Both the position numbers and the translations under genes were made by a program. 64,000 bases of DNA from Actinomycetota bacterium (GTDB lineage: Bacteria > Actinomycetota > UBA4738 > HRBIN12), in contig DATHTO010000149.1 in assembly GCA_035463115.1 (NCBI GenBank), forward strand, positions 20,855 to 84,854. Reading direction: 5' to 3'. Under the pieces are notes generated by a model, which was not told where the DNA came from, did no database searches, and worked only from the letters and a program-made list of their open reading frames with translations. Positions 31,821-60,848 of the stretch are shown here, one piece after another. Within the stretch, counting starts at the first letter, position 1. Each line of letters opens with the position of its first letter.

Positions 31821-32204
31821 TCACTCGACCGTGAGGGTGGTCTCCATCCCTTGCGCCCGATGGAACTCGCAGAACAGGGTGTAGCTGCCGGGGGCGAGGT
31901 CGACCGTCGCGGTCGCCGTCTGCCCCGCTCCGACCTGGACGTCGACGTCTTCGCCCTCGATCGTGAACGTGTGGGGCGCTTGCCCTTCGTTCACGAGCTC
32001 GACGTCGCCCGCCGCGATCACGGGGTCGGCGGGCTCGTAGGCGTTGTCGACGAGCGTGACGGTCCTCGACGCCGAGGCGTCGGTGTCGGCTCCGGCGGCG
32101 TCGCCGGCCGCGTCCTCTCCGCCACCGCCACACGCGGCGAGCAGTAGGGCTGCCGCCAGCGCGAGCGCGACGGAACGGCTGGCGGTGGTGAGCGTCCTTG
32201 CCAT
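31821..32204 (-). CDS. Cupredoxin-fold lipoprotein (single domain)
   Basis: ATG at 32204 preceded by GAAGGAGG. Lipobox LLLAAC. Copper-ligand-like pattern PHTF...FCEFHRAQGM. Confidence 0.8.
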   Translation of the reverse strand: MARTLTTASRSVALALAAALLLAACGGGGEDAAGDAAGADTDASASRTVTLVDNAYEPADPVIAAGDVELVNEGQAPHTFTIEGEDVDVQVGAGQTATATVDLAPGSYTLFCEFHRAQGMETTLTVE

Positions 32205-32218
32205 CTGGCCTCCTTCGG

Positions 32219-33022
32219 TCAGGCCACGTGCACGGTGCCGCGCATCGTGGGATGGATCGCGCAGGCGTAGCGGTAGGTCCCGGGCCGGTCGAAGCGGAAC
32301 GAGAACGACCCTTCGGGATCGAGCGTTCCGGAGTCGAACGCCCCGCCCTCGTCCGTGACGGTGTGCGGAGCGGGGTCGACGTTCGTCCACGTCACGTCGG
32401 TGCCGCTCGCGACGTGGACCTCGTCAGGAGCGAACGCGAAGTCCGCGATCTCGACCGCGTCGGGTGCCGCCGGGCTGGTGTCCTCGAACACGAGTGGCGC
32501 GTCCGGCGTGACGACCAGGGTCGTGCGCATCCCGCGATCGTCGTGCTCCGCGACGAAGCACTCGATCTCGTAGGTCCCCGGCGGAAGATCCGCGCGGATC
32601 CGAACGACGTTGCCGGGCCCGAACTCGGGTCCTTCGAGCTTCAGCTCGCCGTTGCCCGGCCCGCTGTGGTCGCCGTCGTCGTCCTCGCCCTCGATCTCGA
32701 AGCCATGGATCAACGCGCCGCCGTTGCGGATCACGAACGTGACCGGGCCGGGCCGGATCTCGTCGGCTTCGAGCGTGATCGCGAACTCACCGAAGCCGAT
32801 CTCGAGGCCGCCCTCGCGCGGGTCCATGCGACGCGTCGACCCCGTCTGCCCATCGGCAGTCGACGAGGGGTCTCGGTCGCCGGCCGTCCGTGTCGACGCC
32901 GCCTCGGAGGCGCGCCGATCGGGCACGACCGCGGCGTCGTCCTCCGCGAGCGAACACGCGGTCGGGACGGTGGCGACGAGGGCCGCCGCCACCGTCCGTC
33001 GAGCCGTACGGGCCAGCGACAT
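32219..33022 (-). CDS. Two-domain cupredoxin (plastocyanin/amicyanin-like) envelope protein
   Basis: Signal peptide with Cys (VPTAC). Domain 1: ...LIHGFEIEG...YEIECFVAEHDDRGM. Domain 2: DVTWTNVDPAPHTVT...YRYACAIHPTMRGTVHV (type-1 Cu H/C/H/M pattern). Confidence 0.85.
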   Translation of the reverse strand: MSLARTARRTVAAALVATVPTACSLAEDDAAVVPDRRASEAASTRTAGDRDPSSTADGQTGSTRRMDPREGGLEIGFGEFAITLEADEIRPGPVTFVIRNGGALIHGFEIEGEDDDGDHSGPGNGELKLEGPEFGPGNVVRIRADLPPGTYEIECFVAEHDDRGMRTTLVVTPDAPLVFEDTSPAAPDAVEIADFAFAPDEVHVASGTDVTWTNVDPAPHTVTDEGGAFDSGTLDPEGSFSFRFDRPGTYRYACAIHPTMRGTVHVA

Positions 33023-33486
33023 CAGCGGTCGTCCGATCCCGATCCGCGGTGGCCGGAGTCGTCGCTCCCGTGGCCGCTGTCGTCGTCGCCGTGGTCGTCG
33101 TCGCCGTGGTGATCGTCGTCGTCGTCACGATGATCGTCGTCGTCGTGGGACCCCGGGCCGCTGTTGCCGCTCGGTCCAGGGTTCCCGTCGTCGTCGCGGT
33201 CGTCGGCGCCGACGTCCCCGTGGCCCTGGTCGGGCGTTCCGTCGTCGTCCGGCGAGGCGCTCGCCGGTACCGACGGCCCGTCGCTCGGCGAGACGTCGTC
33301 GTCGACGCTCGGCGACGGCGTCATCGTCGCGCTCGGCGTCTCGGTCGCCGACCGCTCGACGACGTCGCTGCTCGATGCGAGCGACGGACCGGGATCGTCG
33401 GCGCCGCCGGCGAGCGCGACCGTTCCGCCGGCAACGAACGCGGCCAGTGCGAGCGCCGCGAGTGCTGCGATCGCTCTCTTCGACAT
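33022..33486 (-). CDS. Secreted Asp/His-rich low-complexity protein
   Basis: ATG at 33486 preceded by GAAGGAGGAG. Signal/anchor MSKRAIAALAALALAAFVAGG. C-terminus ...HDDDDHRDDDDDHHGDDDHGDDDSGHGSDDSGHRGSGSDDR. The stop overlaps the next start by 1 nt. Confidence 0.7.
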   Translation of the reverse strand: MSKRAIAALAALALAAFVAGGTVALAGGADDPGPSLASSSDVVERSATETPSATMTPSPSVDDDVSPSDGPSVPASASPDDDGTPDQGHGDVGADDRDDDGNPGPSGNSGPGSHDDDDHRDDDDDHHGDDDHGDDDSGHGSDDSGHRGSGSDDR

Positions 33487-33590
33487 CGTGCTCCTCCTTC
33501 TCGTGTGGTTCGTTGTCCCTTCGATCCACACGCTAGGGAGGAGCGGGTGAGCGACCGGTCACACGACGGTTAAGACGCGGATAAACCTGG

Positions 33591-33950
33591 TCAGTCGTCG
33601 TCGTCGGCGTGATCGTCGTCGGAACCGGAGCCGTGCCCGCTCGAGTCGTCCGAACCGGAGCCGTGCCCGCTCGAGTCGTCGTCGGATCCACCGTCGTCAT
33701 CGGATCCGCCGCCGTCGGATCCACCATGATCGTCCGACGCGTCCGCCGATGGCGACGCCGAACGAGACCCCGACGGCGTCGGGTCGTCGTTCCGATCCGA
33801 CGGGGACGGGCGATCGGACACGGTGAGGTCCGTCGACGGCGTTCCGCCATCCAGATCGTCGCCGGCGAGGGCGAGGGCGCCGAGCGTCAACGCCAGCGCG
33901 ACCACCAGGCCGCCGACGCCGAGCACCACCATGCCGATGATGCGCCTCAT
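33591..33950 (-). CDS. Secreted/membrane-anchored Asp/His/Ser/Gly-rich low-complexity protein (paralogous in style to 33022-33486)
   Basis: MRRIIGMVVLGVGGLVVALALTLGALALAG, then ...DDHGGSDGGGSDDDGGSDDDSSGHGSGSDDSSGHGSGSDDDHADDDD. Confidence 0.65.
   Translation of the reverse strand: MRRIIGMVVLGVGGLVVALALTLGALALAGDDLDGGTPSTDLTVSDRPSPSDRNDDPTPSGSRSASPSADASDDHGGSDGGGSDDDGGSDDDSSGHGSGSDDSSGHGSGSDDDHADDDD
33621..33680. repeat. Tandem 30-bp direct repeat (2 copies, 29/30 identical) inside the Asp/His-rich gene
   Basis: ggaaccggagccgtgcccgctcgagtcgtc (33621-33650) and cgaaccggagccgtgcccgctcgagtcgtc (33651-33680). Together they encode DDSSGHGSGS twice. Confidence 0.95.
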
Positions 33951-33986
33951 GTCGACGACGGTACCGTCGGTCGCGTTAAAGGGAAG

Positions 33987-35441
33987 CTAAGCGGTGACGG
34001 GGCGCTCGGCGTCTGTCCCGACGTCCGCCGCTCCCTGCCGCACCCGACGGAACCGCACGTCGACGCGTGTTCCACCGTCGACGTCGCTCGTGACGGCGAT
34101 CGAGCCTCCCCACTTCTCCGCGAGCTCACGAGCGATCGCCAGCCCGAGCCCCGACCCACCGCCCGCCGCTCCTTGGCCGCGGTAGAACCGCTCGGTCACG
34201 CGCGGGAGGTCCTCGGAACGGATCCCCGAGCCTCGGTCCACCACGGACACGATCGCGTTCGATCCGTCGGACGCCGTTCGGATCTCGATCGGGCTCGGCG
34301 CGTACGTGATCGCGTTGTCGAGCAGGACGTCGAGGATCTGCCCGAGATCACCGGGGTTGGTCAACGCGACGACCGGTTCGCCGACGACCGGCTCGCCGAC
34401 GACCGGCTCGCCGACGACTGCCAGTGTCGCGCCGGCCGCGGTCGCACGGTCGGCCCAGCGATCGGCCGCGCGCACCGCGGCGTCGTGGGCGTCGACGTGG
34501 GTGTCCTGGCCCTCTTCGACCTCGCGCGACATCACGAGCAGGCGGTCGACCATGCCCGCCATCCGGTCGACCTCGGCGTCCATCGCCTGGAGCTCGTGCC
34601 GCACCACCGCGTCGTCGGTCTCCGCGATCGCCGACTCGATCCGGAGCTTGATGCCGGTCAACGGGGTCCGGAGCTGATGCGATGCGTTGGCGACGAACTC
34701 CCGCTGGGCGCGCACGGTGCGCTCGACGCGCGCCGCCATCTCGTCGAACGAGCGCCCGAGCTGTTCGAGCTCGTCGCCACCCGACACGCGGCCTGCGCGG
34801 ACCGAGAAGTCACCGCGACCGAGGCCCCGCGCCGCCGACGCGAGCCGTGACAGCGGGTTGGAGAGCGACCTGGCGAGGATGAAGGCCAGGACGAGGCCTG
34901 CGACGAGACCGGCGATCGCCACTGCGCCGATCGCGATCGTCGCCCTGGTGACACCGCGTTGCACCTGTTCGACGTCGCGTGAGATCCGGACGACGCCGAC
35001 GAGCTCGCCGTCCTCCACGACCGGCGCTGCCGCCACGACGATGTCGCCTCCCTCGTCGCGGCTCTCACGCACCCCGGCGGAGACGACGCCGTCGAGCGCG
35101 TTCCGGACCTCGGGGCGGCCCGGCGTGTCGTAGCGTTGCCCGACGTCCTCGCGGTCGGAGTCGGCGACCACCACGCCGTCGGGATCGAGCACGACGACAC
35201 GCACACCGACGTCCTCGGCGAACCTGCTGATGTCGTCGACGAGGTCCTCGCGAGCCCTGCCCTCACCGAGCTGTGACGCATCGAGGAGCAGGGCGGTCGT
35301 CTGGGCGTTCGTGAGCGCCCCCGCTTCGAGCTCGGCGCGGGCACGATCGCGTAAGACGATCGCGAGCGGCACGGTGAGCGCGACGATCACGACGAGGAGC
35401 GCGTACGTGAACGACACGACGAGGCGGGTCCGGACCCTCAT
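33987..35441 (-). CDS. Sensor histidine kinase (2 TM, HAMP, HisKA, HATPase_c)
   Basis: FVANASHQLRTPLTGI (H-box), LLDNAITYAP (N-box), VVDRGSGI, GGGSGLGLAIAREL (G-boxes). The periplasmic loop lies between two TM segments. Confidence 0.9.
   Translation of the reverse strand: MRVRTRLVVSFTYALLVVIVALTVPLAIVLRDRARAELEAGALTNAQTTALLLDASQLGEGRAREDLVDDISRFAEDVGVRVVVLDPDGVVVADSDREDVGQRYDTPGRPEVRNALDGVVSAGVRESRDEGGDIVVAAAPVVEDGELVGVVRISRDVEQVQRGVTRATIAIGAVAIAGLVAGLVLAFILARSLSNPLSRLASAARGLGRGDFSVRAGRVSGGDELEQLGRSFDEMAARVERTVRAQREFVANASHQLRTPLTGIKLRIESAIAETDDAVVRHELQAMDAEVDRMAGMVDRLLVMSREVEEGQDTHVDAHDAAVRAADRWADRATAAGATLAVVGEPVVGEPVVGEPVVALTNPGDLGQILDVLLDNAITYAPSPIEIRTASDGSNAIVSVVDRGSGIRSEDLPRVTERFYRGQGAAGGGSGLGLAIARELAEKWGGSIAVTSDVDGGTRVDVRFRRVRQGAADVGTDAERPVTA
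34367..34418. repeat. In-frame 15-bp tandem repeat (about 3.5 copies) inside the histidine-kinase gene
   Basis: cgacgaccggttcgc / cgacgaccggctcgc / cgacgaccggctcgc / cgacgac..., encoding VGEPV-VGEPV-VGEPV between the H-box and N-box regions. Confidence 0.95.
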
Positions 35442-36148
35442 GGGGGCGGGGCGGCCTCGTCGTCATCGGGCGCGGCGAACCGGAACCCCACCCCCCGGAC
35501 GGTCGTGATGTATCGCCCGTCCGCGGCGTCGTCGTCCAGCTTCTTCCGGAGCCACGAGATGTGGACGTCGAGCGTCTTCGTCGGACCGAACCAGTGCGGA
35601 TCCCACACCTCGTCCATGATCTCCTCGCGTCCGACGACCTCGCCCGCGCGCCCCATCAAAAGGTGGAGCAGGTCGAACTCCTTGGCGGTCAGGTCGAGGC
35701 GGGCGCCCGCCTTCGTGACGATCCGCGAGGCGGGATCGAGCGTGAGGTCGTCGATCGTGATGGACGAGCGGCGGGAGCTCGGCGGACGGCCCCGGCGCTG
35801 GATCGCCCGGATCCTCGCGACGAGCTCGCGCACCGAGAACGGTTTCACGACGTAGTCGTCGGCCCCCAGCTCGAGGCCGACGACGCGGTCGAGCTCTTCG
35901 CCCCTCGCGGTGAGCATCACGATGATGACGTCGGACCGCGCGCGCAGCTCGCGACAGAGGTCGCGACCGTCGCCGTCGGGAAGCATCACGTCGAGCAGGA
36001 CGACGTCGGGCTCCCGCGCCGCGAACGTCGTCCGAGCGTCGGCGATCGACGCGGCGACGGCGGGCTCGAACCCCTCGCGGCGGAGGTGGTCGGCGAGCGG
36101 CTCCGAGATCGATGGCTCGTCCTCGACCACGAGGACGCGGGTGCTCAT
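35438..36148 (-). CDS. OmpR/PhoB-family response regulator
   Basis: VLVVEDEPSI...DVVLLDVMLPDGDG (receiver domain), and a C-terminal winged helix LTAKEFDLLHLL...TLDVHISWLRKKL...ITTVRGVGFRF. ATGA overlap with the kinase gene. Confidence 0.92.
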   Translation of the reverse strand: MSTRVLVVEDEPSISEPLADHLRREGFEPAVAASIADARTTFAAREPDVVLLDVMLPDGDGRDLCRELRARSDVIIVMLTARGEELDRVVGLELGADDYVVKPFSVRELVARIRAIQRRGRPPSSRRSSITIDDLTLDPASRIVTKAGARLDLTAKEFDLLHLLMGRAGEVVGREEIMDEVWDPHWFGPTKTLDVHISWLRKKLDDDAADGRYITTVRGVGFRFAAPDDDEAAPPP

Positions 36149-39982: not shown

Positions 39983-42900
39983 TCACGCCGACGAGGCGCG
40001 CACCCGTGCGGCGCGACCGACCGCGCCCTTCGCCTCGTAGCGGTCGACCGCGTCGCGGAGCAGCCCGGGCGGATCGACGCCACCGCTCGCGAGGGTGACG
40101 CGAGCGTCCGCCTGCAGCAGCAGGAGGTCCGTCGCGTCGGCGATGCGGAGCGCCTCGGCGGCCAGGCGTTCCGCGGCCGCGGCGTCGTCGCGGGCCGACG
40201 CGATGGCCGCGCGCACCGCCGTCGACGTCACGGCGACCTCCGGATCCGACGTGCTCGCCTGATGCTCGAGGCCCGCGACGAGCGACTCCGCGCCCGAGAT
40301 GTCGTCGGCCCGCACGAGCACGTCGGCGAGCGTCGCCGCCGCCACGCCGGTGTTCAGGGCGTCTCCTTGTTCCGCGAAGAAGGCGTGGACGGACCGCCGA
40401 TCCGCGATCGCGCCGTCGAGGTCCCCGTCCTCGAGCCGGATCACGGCGTCGGTCTCGGCGGACGCCGCGAGCCATCGACGTTGCCCGAGGTCCTCGAACG
40501 TCGACCGCGCGGCCGCGAGCGCCGCGCGGGCCTCGTCGATCCGCCCGACGAGGGCGAACGCCTGCGCCTCGGTGAGACGCAGCGTCGCGAGCGCGAGGCG
40601 ATCGCCGGGCACGACCGACCCGAGGGCACGCAGGCGGCGGAGCACCTCGTCGAGCGGTGTCGGTCCGAGCAGCAGTCCGGTCGCCAGCAGCGGCGCGGCC
40701 TCGTGCATCGCCCGTGGGTCGCCGCATCGTTCCGCCGCGGCGATCGCCCGTTCCGCCGCCTCGACCATCGCCGCTCCTCGCCCCTCGACCCACGACACCA
40801 GCGCCAGGTCGGTGAACGCCGTCGCGAGATCGCTCTCGGCGCCCTCGGCCTCGAACCGCGGGATCGCGGCCTCGAGCTGCTCGCGGTAGCCCGCGGGCGG
40901 GAGCGCCGACGGGTCGCGCAGGAACGAGAGGTGGGCGCGTTGCATCGTCGCCCGGACGGTCACGAGGTCGTCGGGGGCGCGCGCGGCCTCGAACAGCTCG
41001 TCGACGGCGCGTTCGGCGCCGTCGATGTCGCCGGCGTACAGGCGCGCGGAATGGAGGTCCGCGAGGGCCTCGGCGCGCGCGGGATGCCGGCTCGGCAGCA
41101 GCTCCGCGGCGCGCGCGAGCAGCGTCGCCGCGGATGAGACATCCCCGCGCGACGACGCCGCGCGGCCCGCGCTCGTGAGCCGCACGCCCGCGCGTTCCGC
41201 CAGCTCGTCGACCGCGCTCGAGCGCGAGCCCAGCTCGCGCAACGTGGCCGTCGCCCGGTCGAGGTGGGAGCCGGCGCGGGCGTCGTCGTCGCTGCCGTCC
41301 GCGACCGCGACGTGCAGGTCGACCCGAACCTGCTTCGGAACCGCCTGGTACGCGGCGTCGCGGATCAGGGCCTGGCGGAACCGCCAGCTCGGGTCGCCGC
41401 CGCCGGGATCGCGGACGACGAGATCACGGTCGGCGAGTCGCGCGAGCACGTCGGCGACGTCGCGTCCGTACAGCCGCGCCACCTCGTCGCTCCGGAACGT
41501 CGTGCCGAGCACCGCCGCGCGCTCGAGCACCGCGCGCTCGTCGTCGGCGAGCGCGTCGACGCGCGCATCGAGGAGCGACATCACGGTCGGCGGCACGGGC
41601 AGATCGGTGACGGCCGGAGCGTTCGCCGGAACGTCGGTCGCCGTCCGAGCGTCGGTCGCCGCGCCGAGCGCCGCGATGACCTCCTCGATGAAGAAGGGAT
41701 TGCCGTCGGCGATCTCCACGATCCGCCTGCGGAGCGCGTCCTCGGACGACGGCAGCAGCCACGCGACGAGCTCGGCGCCCTCGTCGGCGCCGAGCGGCTC
41801 GAGGCTGACGGTGATCGCGCCGGGTGCGCGCGCCCACGTCGGATGCTGCAGCAAGATCTCGGGCCGACCGGCGCACACGATCAGGAGGGGCGCGTCCCGC
41901 GTGTGCTCCGCGACGTGCCGCAGCACGTCGAGCATCTCGGGTGTCGCGTGGTGGACGTCCTCGACGACGAGGGCGACCCCGGCCGACGACCGACGCGCCA
42001 CGCCGGCGATGAAGGCGCGCAGCGTCGCGGCCCGATCCGCGCCCGCGAGCGGCGCGCCGCCGAGGCCGATCGACGCGACGAGGCGACCGATGTCGTCGGG
42101 TGTCGTTCCCGCGTCGGCGAGCGCCGCACGGATGGCGGCGGGGGGATCGTCGGGCGCCGTTCCGACGGCGCGTGTGACGATCTCGGCCAGCGGTCGCATC
42201 GGCGACGCCTCGCCGGTCGGGGCGCACCTCCCACGGAGGGTCGTCAGGTCGGTGTGCCGCGACTCGAAGTCCTCGACGATGCGTGACTTCCCGACGCCCG
42301 CCTCGCCGACGACGTTCACGACGCGGCAGCGACGTTGCGCGAGCACGCTGCCCAACGCGTCGTCGAGCAGACGGAGCTCCGCACGCCGGCCGACGATGGG
42401 ACCGGAGGCCTGAGCGGCCCCGTCGTCGACGGCGACGAGCTCCGCCACCGGAACGCCGTCCTCCCCGAACCCCTTCAACGCCGCCCGCGGAAGTTCCCGG
42501 ACCTCGGCGCGGCGGCGGATGCGCGCCGCCGTCTCGCCGTCGACGAGGATCTGACCGGGCGCGGCGGCCTGTTCCAGGCGAGCAGCGAGGTTCACCGACG
42601 ATCCGATCACGAACGGCTCGTCCGGCGCGGCCGGCCCCGCCATGACCTCGCCCGTGGCGATCCCGGTGCGGATCCGCAACGGGATGCCCCACTCGAGCTC
42701 GAGCTCGTCGCTCAGGGCGTCGACCGCGCGCTGGATCTCGATGGCGGCGCGCGCGGCGCGCAGCGCGTCGTCCTCATGGATCCGCGGGAACCCGAACACG
42801 GCCATGACCGCGTCGCCGACGAACTTCTCGAGGCTCCCGCCGTGGCGGAGCACGCAGGCGCGCGTCGTGTCGTAGAAGCGGCTGAGGATGTGATGCGCCG

Positions 42901-43066
42901 TCTCGGCGTCGGCCTCGCGTCCGAGCTCCGTCGACGACACGAGGTCGCAGAACAGCGTCGTGACGGCTCGCCGCGTCCGCGCGACGGTGTGAGCGAGTGG
43001 GCGCCCGCACGACGAGCAGTACCGGGCGTCGGCCGGGTTCTCGGTGCCGCAGCTCTGACAGGTCGT
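39983..43066 (-). CDS. Zn-ribbon / class III cyclase / P-loop STAND (AAA_16-like) ATPase / TPR-like signalling protein
   Basis: The track ORF starts at the GTG at 42940, inside the first cyclase strand (..TTLFCDLVSSTELG). The same frame stays open upstream to a TAG at 43100-43102 and encodes a Zn-ribbon, TCQSCGTENPADARYCSSCGRPL. AAGGAG lies at 43079-43074, but there is no ATG/GTG/TTG, so the start is unresolved (ACG at 43066/43069?). Further motifs: KFVGDAVMAVFGFP, VVGEAGVGKSRIVEDF, then a long helical-repeat tail. Confidence 0.8.
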   Translation of the reverse strand, partial: TTCQSCGTENPADARYCSSCGRPLAHTVARTRRAVTTLFCDLVSSTELGREADAETAHHILSRFYDTTRACVLRHGGSLEKFVGDAVMAVFGFPRIHEDDALRAARAAIEIQRAVDALSDELELEWGIPLRIRTGIATGEVMAGPAAPDEPFVIGSSVNLAARLEQAAAPGQILVDGETAARIRRRAEVRELPRAALKGFGEDGVPVAELVAVDDGAAQASGPIVGRRAELRLLDDALGSVLAQRRCRVVNVVGEAGVGKSRIVEDFESRHTDLTTLRGRCAPTGEASPMRPLAEIVTRAVGTAPDDPPAAIRAALADAGTTPDDIGRLVASIGLGGAPLAGADRAATLRAFIAGVARRSSAGVALVVEDVHHATPEMLDVLRHVAEHTRDAPLLIVCAGRPEILLQHPTWARAPGAITVSLEPLGADEGAELVAWLLPSSEDALRRRIVEIADGNPFFIEEVIAALGAATDARTATDVPANAPAVTDLPVPPTVMSLLDARVDALADDERAVLERAAVLGTTFRSDEVARLYGRDVADVLARLADRDLVVRDPGGGDPSWRFRQALIRDAAYQAVPKQVRVDLHVAVADGSDDDARAGSHLDRATATLRELGSRSSAVDELAERAGVRLTSAGRAASSRGDVSSAATLLARAAELLPSRHPARAEALADLHSARLYAGDIDGAERAVDELFEAARAPDDLVTVRATMQRAHLSFLRDPSALPPAGYREQLEAAIPRFEAEGAESDLATAFTDLALVSWVEGRGAAMVEAAERAIAAAERCGDPRAMHEAAPLLATGLLLGPTPLDEVLRRLRALGSVVPGDRLALATLRLTEAQAFALVGRIDEARAALAAARSTFEDLGQRRWLAASAETDAVIRLEDGDLDGAIADRRSVHAFFAEQGDALNTGVAAATLADVLVRADDISGAESLVAGLEHQASTSDPEVAVTSTAVRAAIASARDDAAAAERLAAEALRIADATDLLLLQADARVTLASGGVDPPGLLRDAVDRYEAKGAVGRAARVRASSA

Positions 43067-53467: not shown

Positions 53468-54199
53468 TCATCCCGAGAGCTGCACGATCTCGCCGGTCGC
53501 CCCCGGGTCCGCGAGCAGGCGGACGACCTCGGCGGCCACCGTCGCCACCGGAACCATCGGCTCGTCGCCTCGGCGCAGCGCCGCGGTCACGTCCTCGGGG
53601 ACGTACCGGTCGAGCCAGGGGGTGTCCATCCATCCGGGCTCGACGGCGTTCACGCGCACGGGAGCGAGCTCGCGCGCGAGGATCGTCGTCAGCGCGACGA
53701 CAGCGACCTTCGAGATGACGTAGGGGATCGACGACCCCTCGAGATAGACCGCGGCATCCGACGCGACGTTCACGATCGATCCGCGCCCGCGTGCGCGCAT
53801 GCCGTCGGCGACCGCGCGGATGCATCGCCACGTCCCCACGAGGTTGACGTCGAGGATCCGGCGCCAGTCATCGTCCGTGAGCGCTCGGAGATCGCCCGCC
53901 GGCGCGTACGTGGTGACGCCGGCGTTGTTCACGAGGAGGTCGACCGGTCCGCCGAGGCGCTGCTCCACGCGCGCGACCATCGCGGCCACCGCCCCGTCGT
54001 CGCGCACGTCGGCAGGGATCGCGACGGCCTCTGTCGGAAGCTCCTCGGCGAGCGCTTCGGCGGCACCCGCCGAGGTCGAGAAGTTGACGGCGACGCTCGC
54101 ACCGGCGGCGGAGAGCCGCCGGCAGATCTCGGCGCCGAGACCGGTGGCGCCCCCGGTCACGATCGCGATCCTCCCTCGGAGCGGCCGCCCCTCGGTCAC
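53468..54199 (-). CDS. Short-chain dehydrogenase/reductase
   Basis: Start taken as the GTG at 54199, which overlaps the upstream cyclase stop (GTGA). IAIVTGGATGLGAEI, NNAGV, YVISKVA (YxxxK). Confidence 0.85.
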   Translation of the reverse strand: MTEGRPLRGRIAIVTGGATGLGAEICRRLSAAGASVAVNFSTSAGAAEALAEELPTEAVAIPADVRDDGAVAAMVARVEQRLGGPVDLLVNNAGVTTYAPAGDLRALTDDDWRRILDVNLVGTWRCIRAVADGMRARGRGSIVNVASDAAVYLEGSSIPYVISKVAVVALTTILARELAPVRVNAVEPGWMDTPWLDRYVPEDVTAALRRGDEPMVPVATVAAEVVRLLADPGATGEIVQLSG

Positions 54200-56886
54200 G
54201 CGTCGTCGCCCGCGTCGGGGTCGAGGAGCAACGCGACCATCGCGTCGATCGTCATGGTCCGTCCGGTGGCGAACGCGTCGGCGTACCGGTGGTGGCCGAG
54301 CGCAGCGCGCGACGCCTCCGCCGGATCCCCGAAGTACGACAGCCCCACGTCGGGGAAGTGCACGCCGTGGTCGACCTGGAGCGACTCCCATGCGCCCATG
54401 AGGATCGCGGCTCGCCCGAACCGCTGGCGCTTCGACGCGACGATCGCCTGCGGCATCACAACCTGCGCGAGCATGATCGGCCCCGGCGTCTCGGCGGCGA
54501 GCGCGGTGGCCTCGATCACGTCGGCGACGGCGTCGTCGAGCCCGCCACCGTCGGGACCGGCGCCGAGGACGTGGATGCTCGCGCGCGCGACCAGCCCCTC
54601 GCAGAGGGCGAGCCGTTCGCCGGCGCTCCGGTTGAGCTCGATCGCCTGGTCGAGCAGTTCGATCGTCCCGGCGGGGTCGCCTTGGAGCATCCGTGCGTAC
54701 CCGATCGACATCATCGTCTTCGCACGCAACACGAGATCGTCGGCGGGCGTGATCTCCAGGCAGCGTTCGAGCGTTGCCAGCGACGAGGCGAGCTCGTCCG
54801 TCACGAGCCAGATGAAGGAACGATCGAACAGCGCGCGTGCGAGCAGCCGCGCGTCGCCGACCTCCTCCGCGATCGCAGCCGCCTCGTCGTACCGCGGGCG
54901 CATCGCCTCGTAGTCGGTCAACCAGTACTCGATCGAGCCGAGCGCGCCGAGCGCTCGCGCGCGCGCCGCGTCGCGCGGTTCGGCGGCCGGCAGGGCGAGC
55001 ACCCGCTGCAGCCGAGCGCGCGCCTCGGTGAGGTGGCCGCGCTGCTGCCAGAACCGCCAGATCGATGCGGCGGTCTCGAGCGCAGGCCGGACGTGCTCGG
55101 CGTCGCGTTCCGCCCGATCGAGTACGGCCCGCACGTTGTCGTGCTCCCGGTCGAGTCGGTCGAGCCAGTCCGTCTGGTCGTGCGCCGTCAGGTGCGGCTC
55201 CGCGGCGGCGGCGAGCTCGTGGACGAACGCCGTATGACGTCGCTCGAGGTCACGCCGCTCCGCGTCGGGGAGCGTGGCGAACCGATCCAGGGCGTACTCT
55301 CGGATCGTCTCCAGCATGCGGAACCGCAGGTCGGGCTCGTCGTCGCCCGATCGGCGCACGAGGCTGCTGTCGAGGAGGGCCTCGAGCCCGGCGAGCACGT
55401 CGAGGTCGTCGCCGCAGACGCGTTCCGCGGCCTCGAGCGTCCATCCGCCCGCGAACACGGCGAGCCGCGCGAAGAGGATGCGCGCGTCGCGGTCGAGCGA
55501 TTCGTCGCTCCATCGGATCGATGCCTCGAGCGTTCGGTGCCGCGCCGGCGCGTCCCGCGGCCCTCCGGTCAACACCGCGAGCCGATGGTCGAGGCGGGCG
55601 GCGAGCGTCTCGGCGTCGAAGAGGCGCAGGCGCGACGCGGCGAGCTCGATCGCGAGCGGAAGCGCATCGAGCCGGCGCACGATCTCGACCACGGCGTCGA
55701 CGTTCGTGGGATCGAGCGTGAAGCCCGGTCGCGCGTCGCCGGCGCGCTCGACGAACAGTCGGATCGCGTCCGACGCCTCGAGCGCCTCGGGTCCGCGCAC
55801 GTCCGCCGCCGGAAGCGCGAGCGGCGGCACGGAGTACTCCGCCTCACCGGACAGCCGCAGCGGGATGCGGCTCGTCGCGAGGACCGTGAGGGTCGGCGCC
55901 GCGTCGAGCACCTCGCCGATCACGCCGGCGCCGTGCACCACCTGCTCCAGGTTGTCGAGGATGAGCAGGACGCGACGGTCACGCAGCTGCTCGGCGACCG
56001 CCGCGAGCGGGTGGCCCACCGTCTCGCGGGCCCGCAGCACACGCCCGATCGTCGGGACGATGACCTCGGGGTCGGTCGTGGTGCTGAGGTCGACGAACCA
56101 CACACCGTCGGGGAACCGATGGGCCGTCGCCCGCGCGACCTCGACCGCCAGCCGCGTCTTGCCGGTCCCGCCGGGACCCGTGAGCGTGGTCAGCCGCGCG
56201 TCGTCGAGCGAACGCGCGATCGCCGCGATCGCCTCGTCGCGACCGACGAACGACGTCCGCGACGTCGGGAGCTCGACCCTCGCGCGTGCGGCGGTCCGCA
56301 GCGGCGGGAACGTCGTATCGAGTCCGTCGATCACGAGGTCGTGCAGCGGCTGCGGCTCGTCGAAGTCCTTGAGGGTGAACGTTCCGAGGGCGCGGACGGA
56401 GACGCCGCCGGGCGGGTCCACGGCCACGAGCGACGCGGTGCTCGCCGACAGCACGACCTGGCCACCGTGCCCGACGGCCGCGATGCGCGCGGCCCGGTTC
56501 ACGTCGAGACCCAGGTAGTCGTCGCCGCCGAGCGTGGCCTCGCCGGTGTGGACGCCGATCCTCACGCGGATCGTGCGGCCGTCCGGCCACGGATGGGACC
56601 CGAGGCCCCGTTGCGCCTCGGCGGCGGCGCGCACCGCGCCGATCGCCGACGGGAACACGACGAAGAAGGCATCGCCTTCGGTCCGGATCTCGACCCCGTC
56701 GCCGGCCGCGATCGCCGCCCGCATCACGCGGGCGTGCGCGTCCTGGAGCTCGCCGTACGCGTCACGTCCGAGCTCGCGGAGCATCCGCGTCGACCCTTCG
56801 ATGTCGCTGAACAGGAACGTCACGGTGCCGGTCGGCAGGTCGCGCACGGCGCAGAACCCTAGTGCAGCCGGCCGCGCACGGCGCAC
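54196..56886 (-). CDS. Class III cyclase / NB-ARC-like STAND ATPase / TPR signalling protein
   Basis: TVTFLFSDIEGSTRML, EGDAFFVVFPS, RIGVHTGEA, LTGPGGTGKTRLAVEVA, LLILDNLEQV, ALPLAIELAA, then helical repeats. The start could be the GTG at 56847 instead of 56886. Confidence 0.88.
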   Translation of the reverse strand: MRRARPAALGFCAVRDLPTGTVTFLFSDIEGSTRMLRELGRDAYGELQDAHARVMRAAIAAGDGVEIRTEGDAFFVVFPSAIGAVRAAAEAQRGLGSHPWPDGRTIRVRIGVHTGEATLGGDDYLGLDVNRAARIAAVGHGGQVVLSASTASLVAVDPPGGVSVRALGTFTLKDFDEPQPLHDLVIDGLDTTFPPLRTAARARVELPTSRTSFVGRDEAIAAIARSLDDARLTTLTGPGGTGKTRLAVEVARATAHRFPDGVWFVDLSTTTDPEVIVPTIGRVLRARETVGHPLAAVAEQLRDRRVLLILDNLEQVVHGAGVIGEVLDAAPTLTVLATSRIPLRLSGEAEYSVPPLALPAADVRGPEALEASDAIRLFVERAGDARPGFTLDPTNVDAVVEIVRRLDALPLAIELAASRLRLFDAETLAARLDHRLAVLTGGPRDAPARHRTLEASIRWSDESLDRDARILFARLAVFAGGWTLEAAERVCGDDLDVLAGLEALLDSSLVRRSGDDEPDLRFRMLETIREYALDRFATLPDAERRDLERRHTAFVHELAAAAEPHLTAHDQTDWLDRLDREHDNVRAVLDRAERDAEHVRPALETAASIWRFWQQRGHLTEARARLQRVLALPAAEPRDAARARALGALGSIEYWLTDYEAMRPRYDEAAAIAEEVGDARLLARALFDRSFIWLVTDELASSLATLERCLEITPADDLVLRAKTMMSIGYARMLQGDPAGTIELLDQAIELNRSAGERLALCEGLVARASIHVLGAGPDGGGLDDAVADVIEATALAAETPGPIMLAQVVMPQAIVASKRQRFGRAAILMGAWESLQVDHGVHFPDVGLSYFGDPAEASRAALGHHRYADAFATGRTMTIDAMVALLLDPDAGDDA

Positions 56887-56973
56887 AACGCGAGTGCAGT
56901 CGGCCGATGACGAGCGTGCGGACCCCGGTGGCCGGCCCGCGCCGAGCGCCGCCTCCGGAGCGTCGAGCCTCGG

Positions 56974-57780
56974 TCAGCGCGCGCCGGCGAGCCGGGCGAC
57001 GAGCCCCCGTTCGTCGGTGCCGAACCACGGCGCATCGCCGGCCGCCGCGTTCTCTGCGACGCGGGACGGCGACGACGTCGCCGGGATCGCGACGTGGCAG
57101 CGCTCGTCGCTCAGGCACCACTTCAGGAGCGCCTGGGCCCACGTGGTCACGCCGAACGCCTCGAGCGGCGCGAGCGCTCCGGGCCCCGGGTCGGCGCGGA
57201 CGAGCGACCCCTCGCCGAAGGGACGCATCACGAGGACGCCGAGGCCGAGCTCCGCGGCGAGCGGCAGGATCTCGTCCTCGACGTCGCGCTCGTGCGGGTT
57301 GTACGGGATCTGGATCGCGTCGATCCGGCCGCTCCGCATCACGCTCGCGAGCTCGTCGAAGGCGCTCGCGGCGTAGTGCGTCGCTCCGATCGATCCGACG
57401 AGGCCGGCGTCGCGCGCAGCCTCGAGCGTGTCGAGGTGCTCGCGCCATGCGACGAGGTTGTGGACCTGCAGCAGGTCGATCCGGCCGCCGAACCATCCGA
57501 GGGCTCGCTCGAGCTGGCGCCGCCCTTCGGCGCCCGAACGCGCCCAGATCTTCGTCGCGACGTACGCGCGGTCGCGACGGTTCCCGAGCGCTTCAGCGAG
57601 GAGCTCCTCGGCGGATCCGTACATCGGCGACGAATCGAACACCGTGACCCCGTGATCGAGCGCCGCCGTGACGACGGACGTCGCGTCCCCGGCGCGAGCG
57701 GCGGCCTCGAGCCGGCGCCACGTTCCGAGGCCGACGACCGGAAGCTCCGGGCCGGCCCGACCGAACCGCCTGCGTTCCAT
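56974..57780 (-). CDS. Aldo/keto reductase
   Basis: MERRRFGRAGPELPVVGLGTW, FDSSPMYG, ATKIW, DLLQVHN, GATHY. Start chosen at the ATG at 57780. Confidence 0.85.
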   Translation of the reverse strand: MERRRFGRAGPELPVVGLGTWRRLEAAARAGDATSVVTAALDHGVTVFDSSPMYGSAEELLAEALGNRRDRAYVATKIWARSGAEGRRQLERALGWFGGRIDLLQVHNLVAWREHLDTLEAARDAGLVGSIGATHYAASAFDELASVMRSGRIDAIQIPYNPHERDVEDEILPLAAELGLGVLVMRPFGEGSLVRADPGPGALAPLEAFGVTTWAQALLKWCLSDERCHVAIPATSSPSRVAENAAAGDAPWFGTDERGLVARLAGAR

Positions 57781-57848
57781 GCGTTCCGTGATACCGCACG
57801 GCCGCACCTCCGGTCACGTGCGTCGAGGAACGCGCCGATGCCGAGGCG

Positions 57849-58379
57849 TCACCAGTAGCGCGCGGTCGCCATGGCCGTGACCGCGAGGAGCAGCAGCACG
57901 AGGTCGGTCTTGCCGTGTCGCTCGAGGGCGCTTCCGAGGCGCTGTTGCTCCGCCGCTTGCTCCGGCGTCGGCGGGCCACCGCCCGCGGCGATCTCGCCGC
58001 CCAGGTCCACGAGGCGCTCGACGTTGCGGCCGACGCCGTAGTAGCCGACGAAGAACGTGAGCGTCGCGAGGACGCCGCCGATCGTGAGCGCGAGCCCGAA
58101 CGACGACGTCACCCAGTCGCCGAGCGACTCGGCGAGCGTCATGTTCCGGAACCACATCACCCACCCCGCGGCCACCGTGATCATGCCGAGGCCGGTGATC
58201 ACCTTCGCGACCTTCCGCTTCTTCACGGCCGCGGTGAGCAACGGGCCCGCGCTCGGACCCACCTCCGCCGCGCTCGGCCCGATGAAGGCCACGAACAGGA
58301 ACGCCGCTCCGACCCACAGCACCCCGGCCACGATGTGCAGGAACCGGAACAGCAGCATGAACAGATCCGCGCCGAGCAT
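57849..58379 (-). CDS. Integral membrane protein (4 TM; LHIVAGVLWVG motif as in CopD/HemJ/DUF2269-type families)
   Basis: ATG at 58379 preceded by GGGGGAGG. MLGADLFMLLFRFLHIVAGVLWVGAAFLFVAFIG.... The family assignment is tentative. Confidence 0.65.
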   Translation of the reverse strand: MLGADLFMLLFRFLHIVAGVLWVGAAFLFVAFIGPSAAEVGPSAGPLLTAAVKKRKVAKVITGLGMITVAAGWVMWFRNMTLAESLGDWVTSSFGLALTIGGVLATLTFFVGYYGVGRNVERLVDLGGEIAAGGGPPTPEQAAEQQRLGSALERHGKTDLVLLLLAVTAMATARYW

Positions 58380-58557
58380 CGATGCCTCCCCCTCGTCGGA
58401 CGCACGAACGATACGGCACCCGTGCCCGCCGATGGAGCAACGCACGCCACGGGAACGTTGTGTGGCAGGCGGCGTCGGTGGACCCGGAGCCGGATCATGC
58501 GCGCGTGCGCACGGCCACCCCAGCGCATCGTGGGCGTGCGGGCCCGGACGAGGCAGC

Positions 58558-59715
58558 TCAGCCGAGGGATCGAACGGCCCGACGGTCCGCCGTGCGGACC
58601 GTCCGCCTGGGCGATCCGACGGGCTCGCATCCGGGGTCGCCGCCATACCGGACGCGGAACGTCGTGTCGCGATCGACCCGGACGCGGAAGCGATAGCCGC
58701 CCTCGGCGTCGGTCCCGACGGTGCGCGCCGGCCGCGGCGGCTCGATGATCCGGAGCGTCACCGCCCGGATGCCTCCGCACGCGGGATCGAACGACCACAG
58801 CCGTCCGCGGACCACCACGCGATCACCCGGGTCGGCGGTCCGCGGCGCGCCGATCGTCAGGCGGCGCCCGAGCTGTCCCCCATCGTTCTTCCCCCAGCAG
58901 TCCACGTCGCCGTCGACGGTCCTCGCACACGTGTGGTAGCTGCCGGCGGAGACCTCCGCGTACGGCCCGGGCCGGTCGTCGGCTTGCCCGTACACGTCGT
59001 GTCCCCAGCAGTGCACGGCCCCGCTGGGCCGCAGCGCGCAGTTGTGATGGTCACCCGCCGACACCTGCGTGAACGGTCCCACCTTGTCCTTCGACTGCCC
59101 GTCGTCGGGGAGGCCCCAGCAGTCGACCGAGCCGTCGATACGGAGCGCGCAGTTGTGTCCGTCTCCCGCCGAGACCTCGAGGTACGGGCCGACGTGATCC
59201 TCCGCGAGGCCGGCTCGGTTCCCGCCCCAGCAGTCCGCGACCCCCTCGGGCGTCAGCCCGCAGTTGTGGGCACCGCTCATCGTGAGCGCCGTGAAGGGGC
59301 CCGGCTGGTCCTCGGACTGGCCGACGTCGTTGCGACCCCAGCAGTCGGCGGCGCCCGTCGTCGTGAGCGCGCAGGAGTGGCGCCAGCCGGCGATGACCTG
59401 GGTGTACGGGCCCGGTCGATCCTCGGCCTCCCCGTCGGCGTCGAGCCCCCAGCACCGCGCGGCGCCGTCGACGGTGAGCGCGCAGTTGTGCATCCCGCCG
59501 GCGGACACCTGCGTGAACGGCCCGGGTCGGTCCTCGGAACGACCGAACGCGTCGTCGCCCCAGCAGTCGGCCGCGCCCGTCGGCGTGATCGCGCACGTGT
59601 GATCGACGCCGGCCCAGACGGTCTCGTAGTCGGTCGCCGCGAGCGTCGGGTGCGCGCAGCCGACGAGCGACGCCACGCACACCGAGACGACCACGGCGGA
59701 GCGCAGGGCTCGCAT
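58558..59715 (-). CDS. Lipoprotein with seven RCC1-like beta-propeller repeats and a C-terminal Ig/CarboxypepD_reg-like domain
   Basis: Lipobox SLVGC. Seven ...H.CAL...G...CWG... units. C-terminal tail VVVRGRLWSF...GGYRFRVRVDRDTTFRVRY. Confidence 0.85.
   Translation of the reverse strand: MRALRSAVVVSVCVASLVGCAHPTLAATDYETVWAGVDHTCAITPTGAADCWGDDAFGRSEDRPGPFTQVSAGGMHNCALTVDGAARCWGLDADGEAEDRPGPYTQVIAGWRHSCALTTTGAADCWGRNDVGQSEDQPGPFTALTMSGAHNCGLTPEGVADCWGGNRAGLAEDHVGPYLEVSAGDGHNCALRIDGSVDCWGLPDDGQSKDKVGPFTQVSAGDHHNCALRPSGAVHCWGHDVYGQADDRPGPYAEVSAGSYHTCARTVDGDVDCWGKNDGGQLGRRLTIGAPRTADPGDRVVVRGRLWSFDPACGGIRAVTLRIIEPPRPARTVGTDAEGGYRFRVRVDRDTTFRVRYGGDPGCEPVGSPRRTVRTADRRAVRSLG
58867..59625. repeat. 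Seven coding repeats with an exact 111-bp (37-aa) period
   Basis: The Cys of each CWG motif falls at residues 51, 88, 125, 162, 199, 236 and 273 of the protein (counted from the ATG at 59715). The spacing is 37 every time. Confidence 0.9.
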
Positions 59716-59749
59716 GTCGCGCACGCTACCGCGTCGCCCGGGCGAGGCC

Positions 59750-60751: not shown

Positions 60752-60848
60752 ATCCCGGACGGTAGCGCGCCGTTCCGGTGTCCGCGTGCGCTCCGCTCGG
60801 CTCCGCTGCTACGTGGCGTCGGGCGCCGCGATGCCGTCGGCCGTGCCT

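Follow-up and report, generated by a model that had tools for sequence, protein, structure and literature searches.

The window analysed here, a 64-kb stretch (64,000 nucleotides, ~72% GC) of the Actinomycetota contig DATHTO010000149.1, contains six consecutive minus-strand genes that encode an OmpR/PhoB-family response regulator, a sensor histidine kinase, two acidic low-complexity proteins (DH2 and DH1), and two cupredoxin lipoproteins (cup2 and cup1; Table 1). The original prediction, made from the letters of this stretch, had proposed that these genes form a co-directional unit, and they are present as arranged there, in reading frames that codon-position GC content supports. For the regulator, the kinase, DH2, DH1, and cup2, GC content ranges from 0.83 to 0.93 at third codon positions (GC3) and from 0.46 to 0.58 at second positions (GC2), and overlapping alternative frames lack the codon-position pattern of real genes. 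For cup1, a GC3 of 0.78 was measured only on an over-long open reading frame (ORF; 31821-32390). The acidic genes can be ruled out as spurious ORFs of high-GC DNA by their GC3, their ribosome-binding sites and promoters, and the conserved N-termini of their products.

Both gene overlaps proposed earlier were read in the junctions: ATGA at the stop of the regulator gene and start of the kinase gene, and a 1-nt overlap (TGATG) at the stop of DH1 and start of cup2. Two gene starts had to be moved. DH1 starts at the ATG at 33486, behind GAAGGAGGAG, an upstream GTG being dismissed, and cup1 starts at the ATG at 32204, behind GAAGGAGG; cup1 hence does not overlap cup2, from which a gap of 14 nt separates it. 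As predicted, no classical copper-resistance gene occurs in the operon, nor within ~8 kb of it.

Table 1. Features of the six-gene cluster, and one gene of related loci. Positions are those of the window unless another locus is named.
Feature	Locus	Position	Strand	Description
Response regulator	window	35438-36148	minus	236 amino acids (aa), OmpR/PhoB family; Pfam Response_reg and Trans_reg_C
Histidine kinase	window	33987-35441	minus	484 aa; Pfam HAMP, HisKA, HATPase_c
Tandem repeat in kinase gene	window	34367-34418	minus	15-nt unit, 3.5 copies, 97% matches (Tandem Repeats Finder)
Putative DH2 promoter	window	33958-33991	minus	boxes CTTAGCT and TTTAACG in 11-bp phase, overlapping the kinase stop
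DH2	window	33591-33950	minus	119 aa, acidic; GC3 0.83
Putative DH1 promoter	window	33529-33587	minus	boxes TTTATCC, CTTAACC, TGTGACC, and GCTCACC in 11-bp phase
DH1	window	33022-33486	minus	154 aa, acidic; GC3 0.86
cup2	window	32219-33022	minus	267 aa, lipoprotein, two cupredoxin domains
cup1	window	31821-32204	minus	127 aa, lipoprotein, one cupredoxin domain
Secreted Cys protein (~130 aa)	L053	5-328		
Secreted Cys protein (~130 aa)	L054	1910-2317		
Secreted Cys protein (~130 aa)	L055	3874-4266		
Secreted Cys protein (~130 aa)	L056	3837-4229		

Two upstream regions of the cluster carry the same promoter element. In aligned orthologous intergenic regions, it consists of 7-bp direct repeats (consensus CTTAnCC) separated by 4-nt spacers, hence in 11-bp phase, and a TAnnnT-like -10 box follows the last repeat at a distance of 10 nt. 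In the putative DH2 promoter, the -10 box (TACCGT) follows the repeats by 10 nt and precedes the ATG by 7 nt, and the mRNA is therefore probably leaderless. In the putative DH1 promoter, 10 nt separate the repeats from a TAGCGT -10 box (33531-33536), followed by a 5' untranslated region with the GAAGGAGGAG ribosome-binding site. The pattern YTTWDCY-N4-YTTARC has exactly two matches in the 64-kb window, for 0.03 expected, and these are the DH2 and DH1 promoters. Matching boxes occur at the kinase-DH2 junction of six related loci (L049, L050, L052, L053, L054, and L055), and 12 aligned orthologous DH1 upstream regions share invariant footprint columns. A position weight matrix built from the DH1 promoters scores 50-73 at its sites, as compared with a 99.99th percentile of -17. 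The geometry is that of PhoB/OmpR-type class II promoters (repeats in place of the -35 element, 10 nt from the -10 box), both at DH2 and DH1 and at the orthologous sites. No convincing box array was found upstream of the regulator gene that would indicate autoregulation.

The boxes also occur at loci with no adjacent kinase. They precede DH1 in three cassettes lacking a kinase gene (L005, L047, and L048), and the matrix finds them directly before cup2 at a locus without DH1 (L009). Furthermore, we examined 34 non-redundant cupredoxin loci that lack an adjacent kinase module and had played no part in deriving the motif. In 13 of them, the coding strand has a two-box match in the 170 nt preceding the first cupredoxin gene, whereas 0.05 would be expected from the remainder of those loci (7 matches in 807 kb; Poisson P ~4e-27, uncorrected for relatedness of the loci). 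At locus L034, cup1-cup2 is preceded by four boxes, and a regulator gene lies immediately downstream. The shared CTTAnCC element thus supports control by this kind of sensor. We conclude that DH2, DH1, and cup2-cup1 appear, by their upstream sequences, to be one regulon of an OmpR/PhoB-type regulator. DH1 being translationally coupled to cup2, and cup1 following 14 nt further on, one activated promoter would drive all three genes. The earlier idea of a single sensor-controlled unit is borne out in this sense by the boxes before DH2 and DH1, the DH1-cup2 coupling, and the boxes at loci without a kinase.

The comparison of related loci shows that the cluster brings together two modules. We compared 12 kinase loci (the window, L007, L039, L049-L056, and the P0125 contig), three of whose kinases had been picked without reference to DH2. 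Kinase identity to the window protein is 50-74% (~40% in L039). The DH2 gene comes directly after the orthologous kinase gene in all 12 loci, and DH1 follows DH2 with L055 as the sole exception. The module continues into cupredoxins in three of the nine loci where this could be judged (the window, L007, and L039), and runs into unrelated genes, e.g. DUF72, arginase, or TetR genes, in the other six. The full arrangement of the window thus recurs in L007 and, without cup1, in L039, a metagenome-assembled genome (MAG) of Gaiellaceae. Conversely, cup1 adjoins cup2 in most of 42 cup2 loci in genomes, a kinase gene being present only in L007 and L039, and DH1 only in these two and in L005. The co-occurrence of acidic ORFs, cupredoxins, and a two-component system, for which a search had been proposed, holds for the window, L007, and L039, but most loci carry one module only.

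A DH1-cup2-cup1 cassette without kinase is found in L005, L047, and L048, and in five loci DH1 is coupled to cup2 at the level of translation. In L047, L048, and the P0010 contig, where cup2 is 69-78% identical to that of the window, the kinase-less cassette is located between the gene for a 176-aa membrane protein and an aldo-keto reductase gene. The window itself is collinear with L047 over 53474-61976 (minus strand; glycosyltransferase, beta-lactamase-like, 369-aa, 176-aa membrane protein, aldo-keto reductase, cyclase-type regulator, and SDR genes), the membrane protein (57852-58379) being 88% identical, but neither the ADH gene nor the DH1-cup2-cup1-CBS insert of L047 is present in this stretch. 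As the site is empty in the window and occupied in its relatives, the cassette has been relocated, carrying DH1 along. The acidic proteins are thus associated with cupredoxins, as first proposed, DH1 travelling with them as a cassette. They are not primarily cupredoxin partners, however: they belong first to the kinase module, which is usually without cupredoxins.

The response regulator has PhoB as its best NCBIfam model (223 bits), below the curated cut-off of 296.2, so that no named equivalog applies. It is likewise below the cut-off of the heavy-metal regulator model (CusRS/CopRS/SilRS; TIGR01386/TIGR01387), with 185.2 bits for 279.2. Orthologues 61-79% identical occupy the equivalent position in L007, L039, L049, L050, and L053. 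The kinase scores below the NCBIfam cut-offs of the CusS/CopS, PhoR, WalK, CreC, and BaeS models, with 128.4 bits for the heavy-metal kinase model (TIGR01386/TIGR01387; cut-off 292.55) and 130 bits for PhoR (cut-off 334). It had been described as a HAMP kinase with a periplasmic loop. The kinase assignment stands, but the simple loop gives way to an extracytoplasmic Cache-like domain of ~140 amino acids (Pfam sCache_3_2, E 2e-7), located between two transmembrane segments, the second of which is followed by HAMP, HisKA, and HATPase_c. No cytoplasmic PAS domain was detected with Pfam, HAMP running straight into HisKA. We therefore rejected a CusS/CopS-type or PhoR-type kinase, as scores are under the cut-offs and the domain set is wrong. 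At least 120 kinase orthologues were found at 58% identity or more, all of them in uncultured Actinomycetota. Across 31 orthologues, only Arg, Asp, Asn, Ser, Thr, Glu, Gly, Pro, and aliphatic residues are invariant in the sensor domain, at positions that include R81, D94, S95, D99, T106, G108, R109, P110, E111, R125, S127, R152, and S154. Judging from the residues conserved, the domain would be suited to a ligand of the carboxylate type, and even the Asp-rich tails of the acidic proteins could play that part. The tandem repeat of the kinase gene adds three GEPVV units to the protein, in the segment that joins the HisKA and ATPase domains, and this insertion is missing in all 30 aligned orthologues.

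DH2 begins with a conserved hydrophobic helix (a signal or membrane anchor). Next come a Pro/Ser/Thr spacer, a DDHGG motif, and DDSSGHGSGS repeats, and the protein ends in DDDD. Its 38 homologues (99-153 amino acids) are all labelled hypothetical. Invariant residues are mostly within the helix (G11, G14, T22, G24, A25, A27, and G30), which is followed by an Ala-x-Ala site (ALALA/GDD); the other conserved parts are an SPSxDDHGG motif, D(D/N)SSG(S/P/H)GSG repeats, and a C-terminal DDD. A metagenome scan with a narrowed DH2 alignment yielded three short loci only. DH1 is built similarly: a signal or anchor helix is followed by a Pro/Ser/Thr spacer and a DDDGTPDQGHGD motif, after which the sequence is of Asp/His/Ser/Gly low complexity, with a net charge of about -31. 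A HMMER search of 1.84 billion representatives with DH1 gave only three matches, as is to be expected of a low-complexity query, and DH1 relatives were thus sought by synteny. Homologues with the shared motif were found in L007, L039, L047, L048, L005, L049, L050, L051, L054, and L056. These relatives have the helix and an Asp-rich end in common, together with DDNSGPG-type repeats and DDDGTPDQG(P/H)GD in one to three copies. In L048 (5554-6001), the DH1 frame is interrupted within the repeats. The product as called stops at …GPGRRLRTRRRLRRPR, and an Asp-rich continuation exists in another frame, which indicates a pseudogene or a misassembly of the repeats. The DDDGTPDQG motif was tried as an EF-hand or DxDxDG calcium loop, but the canonical spacing is not matched and it is a lead only.

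The low-complexity stretches quoted in the original prediction are present in both proteins, and tandem DNA duplications underlie them (a 30-nt unit in DH2, 15-21-nt units in DH1). The Asp-rich ORFs are conserved as coding sequence in relatives. Neither DH1 nor DH2 matches a Pfam or NCBIfam family, even at E-values up to 10, noise aside, and neither has a named homologue, all relatives being hypothetical proteins of uncultured Actinomycetota. Median composition of DH2 (n = 44) is 17% Asp, 25% Ser, 20% Gly, and 2.5% His, for a net charge of about -15. In DH1 (n = 11), Asp accounts for 14-35%, Ser for 8-23%, Gly for 13-22%, and His for 0.7-9.4%, and net charge ranges from -5 to -49. The features conserved family-wide are the D-x-S-G-x-G repeats, the N-terminal helix, and a strong negative charge. 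Histidine reaches 6.6-9.4% of DH1 in a clade comprising the window, L007, L047, and P0279, with HDDD and DDSGH repeats, and at most 1% in L005, L049, and L050. His richness is thus a clade-specific trait on an Asp/Ser/Gly scaffold, contrary to the proposal that Asp and His together provide the ligands. Mature DH1 and DH2 are devoid of Met and Cys, save for one Met in the spacer of the window DH1. Their composition suggests that both proteins are intrinsically disordered and exported.

The cup2 family comprises at least 538 proteins, all genome matches being in uncultured Actinomycetota or Gaiellaceae MAGs. Two cupredoxin folds had been proposed for cup2, with type-1 copper ligands in the second: both folds are supported, but the ligands are not limited to the second domain. 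Among 115 homologues, the domain 1 ligands H106, C155, H160, and M165 are invariant, as are H220, C254, and M260 of domain 2, whose H257 is found in at least 90%. In cup1, described as a single-domain cupredoxin lipoprotein and confirmed as such, the His, Cys, His, and Met of PHTF...FCEFHRAQGM are retained in 24 of 24 aligned homologues. The ligands are thus kept on alignment in all three domains, and three complete type-1 copper sites are predicted across cup2 and cup1. Domain 2 of cup2 scores above the cut-offs of Pfam PF00127 (Copper-bind; 42.3 bits for 21.2) and PF13473 (Cupredoxin_1; 38.6 for 27), as does cup1 (Cupredoxin_1, 48.9 for 27; second model, 30.9 for 21.2), but domain 1 by itself gives no significant Pfam match. 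Domain 2 is amicyanin-like, with a C-x2-H-x2-M loop, and its PDB profile matches are the C-terminal cupredoxin of NirK (4.7e-24), 5fc9, and amicyanin. Domain 1 has the C-x4-H-x4-M spacing of multicopper oxidase (MCO) type-1 sites, and weakly matches MCO type-1 copper domains and the EfeO cupredoxin domain. Directly after His106, it carries an acidic GEDDDGDHSGPGNG loop (E-x-E-DDD-G-D-x-S-G-x-G), in which D118, S120, G121, and G123 are found in at least 90% of homologues; the D-x-S-G-x-G of the DH repeats therefore recurs beside a copper ligand.

An AlphaFold2 model of cup2 from 115 sequences has two beta-sandwiches and a mean predicted local distance difference test score (pLDDT) of 80 (domain 1, ~86-95 outside the loop; domain 2, 92-98). 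It replaces a model from 20 sequences, in which domain 1 had a pLDDT of 54. Both domains are accordingly predicted to adopt the Greek-key beta-sandwich fold. In Foldseek searches, domain 2 matches amicyanin (TM-score 0.71, root-mean-square deviation 1.8 Å) and 5fc9 (TM-score 0.79), and whole cup2 matches two-domain MCO/NirK proteins, although the domain orientation does not superpose (deviation above 12 Å). The signal peptides and lipoboxes (LAAC in cup1, LLLAAC-GGGG; VPTAC-S in cup2, family consensus AACS, C23 in at least 90%) predict lipoproteins. No conserved twin-arginine motif was found in the cupredoxin signal sequences, and the proteins thus presumably acquire copper outside the cell. 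Two identities were rejected for cup2. It is not a multicopper oxidase, as it has none of the HxH, HxxHxH, or HCH motifs but single His residues only (IHGFE, ECFVAEH, PHTV, CAIHP). Nor is it EfeO (NCBIfam NF041757), with 19.1 and 21.9 bits for a cut-off of 270 and no M75 domain, the model aligning through its N-terminal cupredoxin part only.

The surroundings of these modules provide several further observations. Upstream of the regulator gene in four kinase loci (Table 1), there is a gene for a secreted protein of ~130 amino acids with conserved Cys (GDVxRxGxCSGxSDWKLKL...), which has no Pfam family and is not present in the window. In L055, a two-box match (CTTGGCC-N4-CTTGACC) is located ~100 nt before this gene, whose product may be a further regulon member. 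Downstream of DH1 in L050, L056, and the P0125 contig, there are an arginase gene and a convergent ABC transporter (SBP_bac_8, TOBE_2, BPD_transp_1), which appears to be of the spermidine/putrescine (polyamine) type; as polyamines are polycations, this neighbourhood may be connected with the polyanionic proteins, or it may simply reflect synteny. Among cupredoxin loci, a gene ending …CGACMMLLDGKPVNSCSYLA…CGFCTPG… is found directly upstream of cup2 in L012, L013, L014, L015, and L037. We take it to resemble the [2Fe-2S] small subunit of CoxS/xanthine-dehydrogenase-type molybdenum hydroxylases, and its product could be a redox partner of the cupredoxins or simply syntenic. One MAG (MFD09206.bin.2.176) has two separate cup2-cup1 loci (L010 and L018), each with CTTAnCC boxes, and the pair can therefore be duplicated within one genome. 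A tRNA-like sequence lies on the opposite strand (…GGATTCGAACCGACGACCTCCTGCTTGCAAAGCAGG…) directly upstream of cup1-cup2 in L024 (~1330-1400) and L026 (~6300-6370). In the window, the cluster is flanked by genes for an FAD oxidoreductase, an unannotated membrane protein, a convergent homocysteine methyltransferase, an Fpg-type glycosylase, and an adenylate-cyclase-type regulator. Several large regulator genes of the adenylate/guanylate-cyclase plus AAA (STAND) type are present in the window, at 39983-42940 (minus), 54196-56886 (minus), and ~2045-2497 (plus), one such gene being only ~4 kb upstream of the response regulator gene.

The original prediction knew of no described system of this composition, and our full-text literature search likewise yielded analogues (CopI and SilE) but no description of it. 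CopI of Rubrivivax gelatinosus is a cupredoxin-like periplasmic copper-tolerance protein, whose disordered D/H/G/S/A-rich segments bind Cu(II) and constitute a modular copper buffer outside the cytoplasm (PMC13308877). The window system likewise combines the cupredoxin fold with disordered D/H/G/S-rich segments. However, the disordered regions of CopI lie within one polypeptide and have a His/Met motif, whereas here they are separate proteins with variable His and essentially no Met. The host of CopI is a proteobacterium, and the likeness is one of description. To our knowledge, CopI has not been described with a dedicated Cache-type two-component system. SilE, a disordered periplasmic metal sponge, and PcoE resemble the DH proteins in being small, exported, disordered, and encoded beside a two-component system and envelope copper/silver proteins (PMC5008109). 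SilE and PcoE nevertheless carry His/Met (MxxH-type) motifs for Ag(I)/Cu(I), while DH1 and DH2 are Asp/Ser/Gly polyanions with D-x-S-G-x-G repeats. The sil and pco operons, controlled by SilRS, PcoRS, or CusRS, moreover include efflux pumps, a multicopper oxidase, and PcoC/PcoD, all of them absent from the window operon, and the window kinase fails the CusS/CopS model.

PhoB-PhoR shares with the window the best family match of the regulator, and 7-bp repeats with 4-bp spacers located 10 nt upstream of the -10 box. This is the pho-box architecture of PhoB-activated promoters, in which the repeats replace the -35 element. However, the repeat is CTTAnCC here, as opposed to CTGTCAT in the pho box or GTTCACC in actinobacteria; the kinase differs from PhoR in its large extracytoplasmic Cache domain and lack of a cytoplasmic PAS domain; and, unlike in the Pho regulon, there are no phosphate-related genes at the window cluster. 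Amicyanin, plastocyanin, and archaeal cupredoxins (Nitrosopumilus 5fc9, and the C-terminal cupredoxin of 9cck) resemble domain 2 of cup2 and the single-domain cup1. In contrast to this group, cup1 and cup2 are anchored as lipoproteins, domain 2 of cup2 is fused to an MCO-like type-1 domain, and neither methylamine dehydrogenase nor nitrite reductase is encoded near the window cluster. Finally, two-domain MCOs (small laccases) resemble cup2 in their two-cupredoxin architecture and in the C-x4-H-x4-M spacing of its domain 1, which also weakly matches the EfeO cupredoxin domain, but cup2 lacks the HxH trinuclear ligands of MCOs, its Cys being flanked by Glu and Phe instead of two His, and the M75 domain of EfeO. 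The parts that can be classified (the OmpR-family two-component system and the cupredoxins) are ordinary, and it is their combination that is undescribed.

The reading that we favour, tentatively, is that the cluster represents, in its most compact form, a lineage-specific and cation-responsive envelope two-component regulon of uncultured soil Actinomycetota. By analogy with CopI and with sponge proteins like SilE, Cu(II) would be the leading candidate cation in the His-enriched clade, although this is not established. A cation would act as the signal, on the outer side of the membrane, and the polyanions DH2 and DH1 would bind and concentrate, or buffer, metal cations beside the membrane. DH2, with its unusually conserved N-terminal helix, would probably be anchored beside the kinase, and feedback on the sensor is possible. 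DH1 would supply or shield metal for the Sec-exported cupredoxins, which would perform one-electron chemistry outside the cell: either electron transfer or, at the acidic loop of domain 1 in cup2, the oxidation of a bound metal.

Several observations weigh against this scenario. Both the kinase and the regulator miss the heavy-metal two-component cut-offs, and no His, Cys, or Met is conserved in the sensor domain across the 31 orthologues, which argues against a CusS-like soft-metal site; metal sensing by a CusS/CopS-type kinase is thus not supported. Histidine is conserved in neither the DH2 nor the DH1 family, and the almost His-free DH1 of L005 is still coupled to cup2 by overlap. Most kinase modules have no adjoining cupredoxins. 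Similarly, most cupredoxin pairs have no adjoining acidic protein, and DH1 is therefore not obligatory for cupredoxin maturation. Identification of the adjacent response regulator as the box-binding protein is inferred from linkage. More distant cupredoxin loci have another 11-bp-phased repeat: CCTCATC-N4-CCTCATC or CTTCAGG-N4-CTTCAGG, often with CTGAAGGAAC ahead, is found upstream of the first cupredoxin gene in L016, L020, L022, L023, L024, and L026, which suggests, from these sequences, that such loci may be under a regulator of diverged specificity. Finally, the loci are related to one another, so that our counts are not independent events.

A narrower scenario, the original prediction taken strictly, which we consider doubtful, is copper-specific: the Asp/His-rich proteins would be high-capacity copper ligands that load or protect the cupredoxin sites, and the adjacent kinase would sense copper. 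The His-rich DH1 of the window clade, with its HDDD and DDSGH repeats, the coupling of DH1 to cup2 in five loci, and the extracytoplasmic metallation needed by cupredoxins that have lipoprotein signals and no conserved twin-arginine motif are all consistent with it, and CopI itself binds Cu(II) selectively through its His-rich disordered regions (PMC13308877). However, His is no family trait (median of 2.5% in DH2, at most 1% in the DH1 of three loci), the Met/Cys motifs of Cu(I) sponges are absent, none of His, Cys, and Met is conserved in the sensor domain, the kinase reaches 128 bits with a heavy-metal model requiring 292, and the acidic proteins accompany the kinase at loci without adjoining cupredoxins. 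The constant position of DH2 next to the kinase gene (12 of 12 loci) could point to a signalling role. DH2, and perhaps DH1, could be accessories of a three- or four-component system, DH2 being held in the membrane by its helix and packing on the kinase, whose activity it would set or feed back on by offering its polyanionic tail to the Arg-rich Cache domain. The cupredoxins would be mere output, and metal buffering in bulk would not be the purpose; we regard this as unlikely. The ~24-residue helix with invariant small residues is the best conserved part of DH2, which is unusual for a cleaved signal peptide, the invariant sensor residues include R81, R109, R125, and R152 in addition to Ser and Thr, and DH2 has its own boxed promoter and so would form a feedback loop. 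In Cache/PDC sensors, carboxylates are bound by residues such as Arg, Ser, and Thr. Nevertheless, the Ala-x-Ala after the helix (ALALA/GDD) makes cleavage possible, DH1 is also found far from any kinase and coupled to cup2, and slippage of the repeats makes the tails evolve fast, as a specific ligand would not usually do.

It is the Asp/Ser/Gly repeats and the high negative charge that are conserved, not His, and a general role in envelope charge or cation housekeeping (Mg2+/Ca2+ scavenging, replacement of anionic wall polymers by polyanions free of phosphate, or a decoy for cationic antimicrobials or polyamines) could thus be envisaged, as could a role in iron metabolism, with cup2 domain 1 as a ferroxidase and the polyanions holding Fe(III). 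We find such roles distinctly improbable. The promoter architecture and the best model of the regulator are both PhoB-like, and DDDGTPDQG loosely recalls, in our view, DxDxDG-type calcium loops, the canonical pattern not being fitted. But the shared boxes link the polyanions to copper proteins at many loci, the kinase has no PhoR-type PAS domain, and PhoB and PhoR scores are under cut-off. The arginase and ABC transporter genes beside the module in L050, L056, and the P0125 contig would fit a polyamine connection, but they are common to closely related contigs and may be plain synteny. As for iron, domain 1 resembles the EfeO cupredoxin and MCO type-1 domains, with invariant acidic residues near the site, but Pfam and NCBIfam reveal neither an iron permease nor an EfeO M75 domain. 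Finally, the kinase module and the cupredoxin pair might be unrelated and adjacent by chance, as most loci bear one module without the other and the cassette has changed genomic position. This is very hard to reconcile with the recurrence of the arrangement in L007 and in a Gaiellaceae MAG, with DH1-cup2 coupling in five loci, with a box array shared by DH2, DH1, and unlinked cup2-cup1 loci (13 for 0.05 expected), and with L034, where boxes precede cup1-cup2 and a regulator gene is directly downstream.

A bolder reading, which we put forward as a speculation with a rather low probability, would make DH2 a membrane-anchored, disordered polyanionic antenna. Its tail would be a tethered pseudo-ligand of the Arg-rich Cache domain, titrated off by metal cations, and DH1, which has D-x-S-G-x-G in common with the acidic loop next to a type-1 site of cup2, would be a dedicated extracytoplasmic metallochaperone or concentrator for the Sec-exported blue-copper lipoproteins. 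If this is true, it would represent a new mode of metal sensing by a two-component system.

If the cation-responsive regulon is itself real, abundant uncultured soil Actinomycetota would possess a dedicated and previously undescribed envelope regulon, in which a Cache-type two-component system drives disordered polyanions together with a three-site blue-copper module. Exported low-complexity proteins would gain a new class, DH1 and DH2, whose genetic partner is defined, and the system would offer a handle on how extracytoplasmic copper proteins are metallated or protected in monoderm bacteria. The CTTAnCC repeats in 11-bp phase would make this regulon computable in MAGs.

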